From an uncultured Acidobacteriota bacterium (GTDB taxonomy: Bacteria > Acidobacteriota > JAQAZP01), in the NCBI GenBank assembly GCA_963836075.1, contig CAWIIB010000009.1:3330442-3394441 (forward strand): a stretch of DNA of 64,000 bases. Reading direction: 5' to 3'. Positions 32,788-33,081 of this stretch are shown here, piece after piece. Each line of letters starts with the position of its first letter. Positions within the stretch are counted from its first letter, which is position 1. The notes under the pieces are model-generated. The model saw only the letters and a list, made by a program, of their open reading frames with translations. It was not told the DNA's origin and did no database searches. The translations under genes were made by a program, and so were the position numbers.

Positions 32788-33081
32788 ATGAAGGAAATGA
32801 CTTCGGTAACCGGTGGAGGGTCCGGGGCTGTGGGGACACTGGACCTCCTGGCCACGGACATCACCAACACGATGCAGATTCAGGCCCTGGGCATCCAGTC
32901 CGGGGCGCCGGTGTCGGCGGTTGCGCGCTCACTGGCGGCCACCATGAATCTGCCATCCGGTGTGCCCTGGGCCATTCGGGATGATCGCACCAGCGCGTTT
33001 CTCGATGACGCCCGGACCATTGGCGAGCAGGTCACACCGGACAGCAGTGTGACGGTTGTCCCTCGGACGCACCTCGGCTGA
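32788..33081 (+). CDS. Ubiquitin-like (beta-grasp) protein ending in Gly
   Basis: ATG at 32788, 8 nt after GGAGG. 97 aa with a Gly-rich N-terminal stretch and then a ~70-aa core. The C-terminus is ...VTVVPRTHLG followed by the stop. Confidence 0.6.
   Translation: MKEMTSVTGGGSGAVGTLDLLATDITNTMQIQALGIQSGAPVSAVARSLAATMNLPSGVPWAIRDDRTSAFLDDARTIGEQVTPDSSVTVVPRTHLG

Follow-up and report, generated by a model that had tools for sequence, protein, structure and literature searches.

A ubiquitin-fold protein with a conserved C-terminal glycine, encoded in a bacterial operon with two E1-type enzymes, a RING-like protein and an Mpa-like AAA+ ATPase

The DNA analysed here (hereafter the window) is a stretch of 64,000 nucleotides (nt) from an uncultured Acidobacteriota bacterium of the GTDB lineage JAQAZP01 (assembly GCA_963836075.1, contig CAWIIB010000009.1, positions 3,330,442 to 3,394,441 of the forward strand). 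It contains eleven tightly packed genes on the plus strand, between positions 29291 and 39175, the fifth of which encodes a small ubiquitin-like protein (Ubl), called here Ubl1, which is the subject of this work. The gene order is RING-like protein, E1a, E2a, pos4, Ubl1, JABa, AAA+ ATPase, Ubl2, pos9, JABb and E1b, and the names reflect candidate activating (E1), conjugating (E2) and deconjugating functions that are discussed below. For brevity, the first six genes are referred to as module 1, and Ubl2, pos9, JABb and E1b as module 2; coordinates of all features are collected in Table 1.

The Ubl1 gene begins with the ATG at 32788, with the sequence GGAGG located 8 nt upstream of it, and ends with the codons CCT CGG ACG CAC CTC GGC TGA, i.e. 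P-R-T-H-L-G-stop, after 97 codons. Public gene callers predict the identical product of 97 amino acids (aa). A first-pass annotation of this DNA had described an open reading frame (ORF) of 97 residues that stops exactly at a Gly, and both the codons and the public gene calls confirm it; its further statement that Ubl1 carries no pro-peptide holds for the protein as encoded in this genome. The only Lys residue of the protein from the window is K2, in the disordered N-terminus, and Lys-linked chains of Ubl1 built on the folded domain are therefore impossible in this organism.

A sequence profile built from three close homologues retrieved 114 relatives of Ubl1 with E ≤ 1e-3 (59 with E ≤ 1e-10) among 1.84 billion cluster representatives, and a second search, carried out in a collection of 5.8 billion sequences, returned 89 matches, every one of them unnamed or annotated as "hypothetical". 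The family comprises about 190 relatives, whose length is nearly always between 90 and 110 aa, and shares the C-terminal motif P-[KR]-x-H-L-G. In the alignment of 93 sequences L96 is invariant, while P92, H95 and G97 are conserved in at least 90% of members. Among 177 distinct members that have P-x-x-x-L-G, the Gly is the last residue in 117 (66%), and in the remaining 60 it is followed by 1-26 unconserved residues (AR, AA, GGSR, QH etc.). The same is seen when the family is sampled by genome: in 49 species-level loci Ubl1 ends at Gly or Ala in 33 and carries a tail of 1-7 residues in 16. The first-pass annotation had named lack of the terminal Gly in homologues as grounds for abandoning its reading of Ubl1 as a conjugation-ready protein; the Gly is conserved, and on this point the reading therefore stands. 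Ala replaces the Gly (…HLA) in four relatives outside the set of 177 (P0059, P0125, P0149 and P0157), as well as in loci L010 and L033, in the latter of which it is followed by a tail of 7 residues. Four long "homologues" (P0072, P0074, P0079 and P0062) appear to result from over-extended start calls, and one candidate member (P0105) was rejected as an unrelated repeat protein.

AlphaFold modeling of Ubl1 with only three sequences gave a mean predicted local distance difference test score (pLDDT) of 67, and modeling with the 93-sequence alignment yielded a β-grasp fold with pLDDT 86.8 and a predicted template modeling score (pTM) of 0.74. The model comprises strands at residues 17-24, 30-37, 61-65 and 86-92, and two helices, at 42-52 and, shorter, at 78-81. 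The first 16 residues, which show no conservation, are disordered in the model, the β-grasp core extends over residues ~17-92, and the five-residue C-terminal tail is predicted with less confidence. Searched against the PDB with Foldseek, the model gave 380 matches at E ≤ 1e-3, the top 50 of which are all chains from the ubiquitin family; the first rank is taken by the ubiquitin of Caldiarchaeum (6fno_D, E 6.4e-6), followed by ubiquitin and by the Ubl of a Bil system (8tyx_A). The structure prediction and the Foldseek matches thus bear out the β-grasp core that had been proposed from the sequence, and the N-terminus, which had been called probably disordered, is indeed both variable and poorly predicted. 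Sequence comparisons are far less telling: the 93 family members give only sub-threshold matches, mostly to β-grasp families (RA_2, YukD, DUF2604, FERM_N, Ufm1, Rad60-SLD), and the profile search of PDB sequences yielded only matches with E between 0.4 and 1.3, four of six of them to ubiquitin-like proteins. According to the model, the relationship of Ubl1 to ubiquitin lies at the level of the fold and not in membership of the existing sequence families.

The genomic context of Ubl1 is conserved as well. The contigs of eight divergent Ubl1 homologues have an identical gene order throughout. With the pos9 protein as seed, a choice that favors operons containing module 2, we scanned 185,579 species, each represented by one genome, and obtained 64 loci, all of them in metagenome-assembled genomes (MAGs), mainly of Planctomycetota and Verrucomicrobiota, and in addition of Deltaproteobacteria/Thermodesulfobacteriota, Gemmatimonadota, Acidobacteriota and Eiseniibacteriota. 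When all loci were scanned with hidden Markov models (HMMs), the complete order, with an optional extra gene between the ATPase and Ubl2, was found in some 40 loci at the level of species, which represent at least six phyla; apart from the short forms described below, the remaining loci are cut by contig ends. This extra gene, encoding a protein of ~390-400 aa, is present in about 16 loci (e.g. at 13410-14576 in L007 and at 13368-14573 in L008); it has no Pfam match and is not present in the window.

E1a shares the operon with Ubl1 in every Ubl1 locus with sufficient flanking sequence. Four loci from Gemmataceae, Gemmatales and another planctomycete (L054, L059, L060 and L071) exhibit a short form, AAA-Ubl2-pos9-JABb-E1b, without detectable RING-like protein, E1a, E2a, pos4, Ubl1 or JABa; in two of these (L059 and L071) the scanned upstream ORFs are ordinary metabolic or housekeeping genes. 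Ubl1, E1a and the other four upstream genes are thus either all present or all absent, in the manner of a single cassette, whereas E1b is retained alongside Ubl2 and the ATPase; on these grounds E1a is the most likely partner of Ubl1. In L059 and L071 a small unannotated ORF of 153-178 aa lies just ahead of the ATPase gene.

Table 1. Genes and other features of the operon and of its upstream flank, in window coordinates
Feature	Position	Strand	Description
HTH protein	27343-28611	-	422 aa; Cro/C1, HTH_26-like (HTH_26 E 1.5e-3; 1.3e-7 in the homologue from L008); divergent; candidate regulator
Intergenic region	28612-29290		lower G+C content (0.535, compared to ~0.64-0.67 in the flanks); probable promoter region
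RING-like protein	29291-29932	+	213 aa; binuclear treble-clef; candidate E3
E1a	29944-31191	+	415 aa; ThiF-fold adenylating enzyme with a Cys-rich C-terminal extension; Pfam ThiF E 5.4e-24
E2a	31268-31945	+	225 aa; candidate ubiquitin-conjugating enzyme; motif [WF]-H-[PA]-N-x(8-12)-C-L-G
pos4	31950-32765	+	271 aa; conserved protein, invariably between E2a and Ubl1
Ubl1	32788-33081	+	97 aa; ubiquitin-fold protein ending in …PRTHLG-stop
Hairpin	33082-33165 (main stem ~33089-33142)	+	GC-rich; stem ~19 bp; no T-run after it; directly past the Ubl1 stop
JABa	33187-34362	+	391 aa; candidate Ubl1 peptidase or deconjugase; JAMM-like motif in the C-terminal half
AAA+ ATPase	34367-36127	+	586 aa by the public call (GTG at 34340 would make 595 aa); proteasomal Mpa/ARC type with OB domain
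Ubl2	36174-36509	+	111 aa; disordered-looking N-terminus, ThiS/SAMP-like core; conserved end …AGEKG, here with a 12-residue tail
pos9	36503-37453	+	316 aa; candidate E2-like carrier for Ubl2; invariant W-I-C-T (Cys179) and S-S-E-x-x-E motifs
JABb	37440-38348	+	302 aa; Prok-JAB metallopeptidase; Pfam Prok-JAB 5.9e-8, above cut-off
E1b	38345-39175	+	276 aa; minimal ThiF-type adenylating enzyme, proposed Ubl2 activator; NCBIfam ThiF-type 1e-12

Among the putative partners of Ubl1, E1a is the most readily recognized. Its nearest relatives of known structure are UBA7 and UBA1 (E ~1e-22), followed by MoeB, and 40 of 40 loci retain the Gly motif as well as D78, K102, D145 and Cys210. There is one ThiF domain match across the 415 aa, and PADLOC returns generic E1-E2 (Cap2-type) matches to the adenylation domain alone. 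Residues ~330-415 form a conserved extension, with C335, C337, C360 and C363 in an arrangement resembling a zinc ribbon, followed by ~50 conserved residues; this extension might recruit an E2, in the way of the ubiquitin-fold domain (UFD) of eukaryotic E1s. In E2a, Cys147 is present in 46 of 46 loci, and within the motif preceding it His is found in 31, Pro or Ala in 41 and Asn in 37 of the 46. A profile of six E2a sequences has a single match in the PDB, the ubiquitin-conjugating (UBC) enzyme 2e2c (E 0.29), with HPN and Cys in register, and the comparison with UBE2D2 by hhalign also superimposes HPN and Cys (E ~4e-4, probability ~35%); there is no Pfam match to E2a. In the RING-like protein the seven putative Zn ligands C145, C148, C164, H169, C183, C190 and C193 are invariant in 38 of 38 loci, and to these is added a variable Cys or His.

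The C-terminal half of JABa contains the motif E217 … H288-x-H290 … C302, C305, C311 … S319-x-x-D322, of which the Glu, both His, the Ser and the Asp are found in 48 of 48 loci. A Pfam Prok-JAB match was obtained for one of seven JABa members (E 0.062), and neither the full-length profile nor that of the C-terminal domain matched a JAB protein in the PDB; the only matches, to a Cys-rich part of coronavirus nsp14 (E ~0.06), were dismissed as due to chance. A 956-aa "JABa-AAA fusion" on a metagenome contig (L073, 2243-5113), which would have linked the two proteins in Rosetta-stone fashion, is a frameshift artefact, as the C-terminus of JABa goes on in another frame (3127-3330). As to pos4, the protein from the window has no Pfam match, and faint or weak marks of YbjN are limited to two homologues.

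Module 2 is built around Ubl2, whose end in the window reads …AGEKG-GRRRSHGGGSPC. All 24 aligned sequences share the end …A-G-E-K-G without exception. Among 68 loci, 17 have no residue after the conserved Gly, and most have 1-46 unconserved residues there; in seven (L003, L018, L019, L021, L036, L041 and L056) the frame runs on for ~280-330 residues, and the continuation in L003 aligns with the downstream Cys-protein pos9, i.e. it is an in-frame fusion. In L047 another 164 residues are encoded in the Ubl2 frame after the conserved Gly, the first of them forming tandem repeats of SG[GE]KG and thus copies of the terminal motif. Members of the Ubl2 family have sub-threshold matches to ThiS, SAMP2 and TGS and weak matches to ubiquitin in the PDB, and in the profile-profile comparison Ubl1 and Ubl2 are aligned in register with no significant similarity. 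The Cys of pos9 is kept in 65 of 65 loci, and the protein has neither a Pfam match nor a meaningful match in the PDB. JABb carries the motif E…H-S-H…S-x-x-D, which is invariant in 63 of 63 loci, and E1b matches PRTRC_ThiF (5.7e-7), its best relatives of known structure being ThiF, MccB and TcdA. Invariant Cys residues are found in E1a, E2a, pos9 and E1b alike.

These comparisons allow us to refine the earlier description of the two Ubls. The window does encode GG and 11 further residues at the end of Ubl2, as had been stated, but what is conserved is the single Gly of AGEKG, and of the two Gly it is most likely the first that is reactive. The proposal that the two Ubls differ in maturation does not survive the comparison, since both families mix members that end at Gly with members that carry tails; the difference in pro-peptides between Ubl1 and Ubl2, as judged from the alignments, is specific to this genome and does not characterise the system. 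On the other hand, the suggestion of two distinct tags fared well, and that of a hierarchical cascade was neither supported nor refuted. As each Ubl appears to have a separate E1 and a separate Cys-enzyme, and the two Ubl families show no significant similarity by profile comparison, it is reasonable to regard Ubl1 and Ubl2 as two different tags.

The gene product located between JABa and Ubl2 is an AAA+ ATPase that matches the Pfam families AAA (4.8e-14) and Prot_ATP_ID_OB_C (6e-4), and over nearly its full length, under the cut-off, the NCBIfam model pup_AAA (8.4e-25). The best relatives with solved structures are Mpa (5kwa, 1.7e-16) and ARC, followed by Cdc48/p97. The C-termini of the ATPase family are unconserved and contain no proteasome-docking motif of the HbYX or GQYL type, and no protease gene was recognised among the proteins of the operon.

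In our opinion, the likely function of Ubl1 is that of a ubiquitin-fold modifier, mature as translated, which is activated by E1a and passed on via E2a and the RING-like protein, the second cassette acting separately. We favor this explanation because the Gly is conserved either as the last residue or before unconserved tails, which is a signature of processed and activated Ubls, and because the machinery is conserved, both in the gene order of ~40 loci and in the invariant residues of catalytic type in E1a, E2a, the RING-like protein and JABa. From the observed fold, terminal Gly, synteny and co-occurrence we infer the following chemistry, E1 pairing and roles of the E2, E3 and peptidase candidates. 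In this genome no processing would be needed to expose the carboxylate of Gly97, which terminates the flexible tail T-H-L-G. Gly97 would be adenylated by E1a and then bound as a thioester to Cys210, from which Ubl1 would be handed to Cys147 of the E2-like protein E2a. The RING-like protein could aid the transfer of Ubl1 to amino groups of target proteins, and JABa and/or the Prok-JAB protein JABb would remove the tag and trim the short tails in those genomes that encode them. Ubl2, pos9, JABb and E1b would constitute a separate cassette, the one that is always accompanied by the Mpa-like unfoldase; the latter probably engages tagged proteins, or may use the disordered N-termini of the tags as the start of threading, by analogy to Pup and Mpa. 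The targets and the purpose of such tagging are a matter of conjecture: the patchy spread across phyla and the helix-turn-helix (HTH) regulator adjacent to the operon in 10 loci are weak hints compatible with a role in defence or stress, and neither the native G+C content nor the housekeeping genes in the flanks point to a mobile island.

Several observations weigh against this explanation. All members of the family come from uncultured MAGs and are known from sequences alone. Ubl1 from the window has no match in Pfam, NCBIfam or PADLOC, and the HMM searches that the first-pass annotation had proposed were negative for it: among the 25 families listed for the 93 members at E ≤ 1, ubiquitin (PF00240), Prok_Ub (PF14454) and ThiS (PF02597, which includes MoaD) are absent. 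The Pfam match of the RING-like protein to Prok-RING_1 (E 1.4e-5) is under the curated cut-off. The assignment of E2a as an E2, which draws on the motif, on the PDB match with E 0.29 and on an hhalign alignment of low probability, stays at the level of motifs, and a deeper profile of 24 sequences gave no PDB match, so that the similarity to UBC was not reinforced. The assignment of JABa to JAMM peptidases is likewise confined to the motif, and its comparison by hhalign with the Prok-JAB protein of the operon was not significant. Finally, the pairing of Ubl1 with E1a is co-occurrence and not proof, and it is one-sided, given that the pos9 seed could not reveal an operon with module 1 only; in genomes with the short form, module 1 could be located elsewhere.

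We consider other explanations of the same data less likely. It is possible, although we regard it as unlikely, that Ubl1 is conjugated but activated by E1b or by both E1s, and that the cassettes form one hierarchical or cross-regulating cascade, in which e.g. one Ubl modifies a component of the other cassette or the AAA+ ATPase. Such a cascade would agree with the joining of both cassettes in one operon in every full-length locus, with the position of the ATPase between them, and with the C-termini of both Ubls, where a small or hydrophobic residue precedes a single conserved Gly. However, the loci without Ubl1 also lack E1a, yet they retain E1b and Ubl2; moreover, in L003 Ubl2 forms a fusion with the Cys-protein of the same cassette, with a similar in-frame run-on in six more loci, and the families of Ubl1 and Ubl2 are not significantly similar. 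That Ubl1 is instead a non-conjugated β-grasp subunit or adaptor which binds the ATPase or the E2-like protein, in the way of YukD, of TmoB or of UBL domains in shuttle factors, we consider very unlikely. A strictly conserved Gly that either ends the protein or precedes unconserved residues is characteristic of Ubls that are processed and activated, and the genes co-transcribed with Ubl1, which encode an E1, an E2-like protein bearing a Cys, and RING-like and JAMM-type proteins, also speak for a conjugated tag.

Sulfur carriers of the ThiS/MoaD type are also β-grasp proteins with a C-terminal Gly, and E1a matches the models of MoeB and ThiF as well, so that Ubl1 could in principle be thiocarboxylated by E1a for the synthesis of a cofactor or a thionucleoside. 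This possibility is scarcely credible: the 93 members show no ThiS or MoaD match among their 25 listed families and end in H-L-G, not G-G, no rhodanese, MoaE, ThiG or other gene of a sulfur pathway was recognised in the operon or the flanks of the loci examined, and what the loci contain in place of these are E2-like, RING-like and JAMM proteins and an AAA unfoldase. GC-rich genomes yield many spurious ORFs, and as many as 123 ORFs of at least 50 aa overlap an 18-kb stretch of this DNA, which raises the question of whether the Ubl1 frame and its terminal Gly are coincidental. The chance of this is negligible, since it is refuted by the 114 homologues (E ≤ 1e-3), the position kept in ~50 loci and the confident fold; a Shine-Dalgarno sequence ahead of the ATG also speaks against it.

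Returning to Ubl1 as a modifier served by E1a, it is tempting to consider the operon in its entirety as a self-contained bacterial counterpart of the ubiquitin-unfoldase systems, in which an older core, made up of the ThiS/SAMP-like tag Ubl2 with its minimal E1, Cys-carrier and JAB and of the Mpa-like ATPase, was supplemented with the eukaryote-like Ubl1 cassette for an E3-directed choice of substrates, and in which the disordered N-termini of the tags are threaded by the ATPase. The presumed core is also encountered alone, in the short-form loci. We put this scenario forward as conceivable, while remaining on the doubtful side.

Ubiquitin-like conjugation in bacteria has only lately been shown experimentally, for Cap2 of the cyclic oligonucleotide-based antiphage signaling systems (CBASS), for Bil and for Bub, and to our knowledge these systems lack an E3 and are not linked to an unfoldase. 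The system from the window resembles Bil (BilABCD; BilA in PDB entries 8tyx/8tyz; PMC10557695) in that a Ubl of ~100 aa with one β-grasp domain and a single conserved Gly, followed by zero to few unconserved residues, is encoded together with E1, a candidate E2 and JAB; in module 2 even the Bil gene order Ubl-E2-JAB-E1 is seen. In type II BilA, a universally conserved Gly is followed by up to nine unconserved residues, and JAB was shown to cut after the Gly (PMC10557695). By analogy, Ubl1 may work like a bacterial Ubl of the BilA type. No relationship between the two systems was seen at the level of sequence, Ubl1, E2a and JABa having no PADLOC or Pfam matches (and JABb none in PADLOC), and they differ in the E1, which in BilD has the IAD-AAD-CYS architecture, unlike the single ThiF match in the 415 aa of E1a. 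Moreover, Bil operons encode no E3, whereas here the RING-like protein, the second Ubl cassette and the Mpa-like ATPase are found.

The component list of module 1 (ubiquitin-fold tag, E1, candidate E2 with HPN and Cys, RING-type protein and JAMM-motif protein) matches that of the "eukaryote-like" operon of Caldiarchaeum subterraneum, in which the JAMM protein is Rpn11-like (PDB 6fno; PMC3082918), and that of the eukaryotic set. The differences are that the E2, RING and JAMM proteins described here are too diverged for the family models, and that the operon is bacterial, occurring in MAGs of the Planctomycetes-Verrucomicrobia-Chlamydiae (PVC) group, Acidobacteriota, Gemmatimonadota and Deltaproteobacteria, and has in addition the ThiS-like cassette and the ATPase. 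Ubl1 matches no ubiquitin HMM and terminates with H-L-G, unlike ubiquitin, which terminates with G-G. In this respect it may be compared with UFM1, ATG8 and ATG12, which have a single reactive terminal Gly after a hydrophobic residue, the short pro-peptides of UFM1 and ATG8 being cut by a dedicated protease. One member of the Ubl1 family has a weak match to the Pfam family Ufm1 (E 0.012); there is, however, no significant sequence similarity between these proteins and Ubl1, and their E1 and E2 enzymes belong to other families. The eukaryotic machineries are UBA5/UFC1 and ATG7/ATG3, and ATG8 is attached to a lipid.

A different parallel is offered by the Pup-Mpa-proteasome system of Actinobacteria, as Mpa and ARC, including the OB domain, are the closest relatives of the ATPase of the operon, and as the disordered N-termini of both Ubls could serve as a threading site in the manner of the N-terminus of Pup. 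Pup is intrinsically disordered and ends with GGQ or GGE, and its ligase PafA is glutamine-synthetase-like and not an E1 or E2. In contrast, Ubl1 is predicted to be a folded β-grasp protein, no match to PafA or Dop was found in the operon, and its ATPase lacks GQYL and HbYX. In Bub (also 6E/DUF6527), which is composed of Ubl, E2 and E1, Ubl-E2 fusions are cleaved by a JAB domain (PMC11601596, PMC11601603), and the fusion of Ubl2 with pos9 in L003, together with the in-frame run-on in six loci, is reminiscent of these. However, Bub forms Ser oxyesters without catalytic Cys residues and has neither a RING-like protein nor an AAA ATPase (PMC11601596, PMC11601603), whereas no protein of the operon matches DUF6527/BubE, the serine protease of Bub, and both candidate carriers as well as E1a have an invariant Cys. 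On the features tested, Ubl1 is therefore best regarded as not belonging to the Bil, Bub, Pup or ThiS/MoaD systems.

The family sets itself apart by uniting in one operon a ubiquitin-fold tag, an E1 similar to UBA1/UBA7, an HPN-Cys candidate E2, a RING-like protein, a proteasome-type AAA+ ATPase and a ThiS-like second cassette. No account of a two-tag operon with RING and AAA proteins was found in the full-text literature searched, an earlier in-silico mention being possible. Pfam, NCBIfam and PADLOC have no annotation for the family, although it is present in MAGs of at least 64 species. If the two-tag ubiquitin-unfoldase scenario were true, free-living bacteria from several phyla would have combined an E3-directed tag with an ATP-dependent unfoldase independently of the eukaryotic and actinobacterial solutions. 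Studies of the system could bear on the origin of E3-dependent ubiquitination and of tag-directed unfolding, and on whether it is one more antiviral system or a pathway of proteostasis. The small size of the proteins, the defined set of genes and the predicted reactive residues should make the reconstitution straightforward.

The operon is preceded by a divergent gene for an HTH protein, homologues of which, of 370-420 aa, adjoin the operon in nine other loci (ten including the window), usually in the divergent orientation; it is probably a dedicated regulator or sensor of the operon. Such homologues occur e.g. in L003, L007, L008 (two copies), L010, L026, L032, L039 and L062, and their C-terminal domain is uncharacterised. 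The five sigma-70-like sites detected over the scanned 11 kb all lie within 28742-29580, and four are inside the intergenic region, compared to 1.6 expected by chance. The G+C content of the operon equals that of its flanks, and recent acquisition is therefore not indicated.

Directly after the Ubl1 stop codon the transcript can form a hairpin (region 33076-33195) with a minimum free energy of -67 kcal/mol (z = -5.2; none of 200 shuffled sequences was as stable). Comparable long stems that lack sequence conservation recur after Ubl1 in most of the related loci: when the post-Ubl1 gap alone was scored over the first ~110 nt past the stop (L003-L068), the median z was -2.45, and z < -2 was obtained in 57% of 49 loci. 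The hairpin may be a 3'-end stabiliser or an attenuator that lifts the dosage of Ubl1 above that of the downstream genes. The window contains no Rfam matches. Upstream of the HTH gene two small proteins with long poly-Gly runs are encoded on the minus strand (25972-26487 and 26580-27050); the pair looks unrelated to the operon, and one of the two contains a CarboxypepD_reg domain (1.8e-15).

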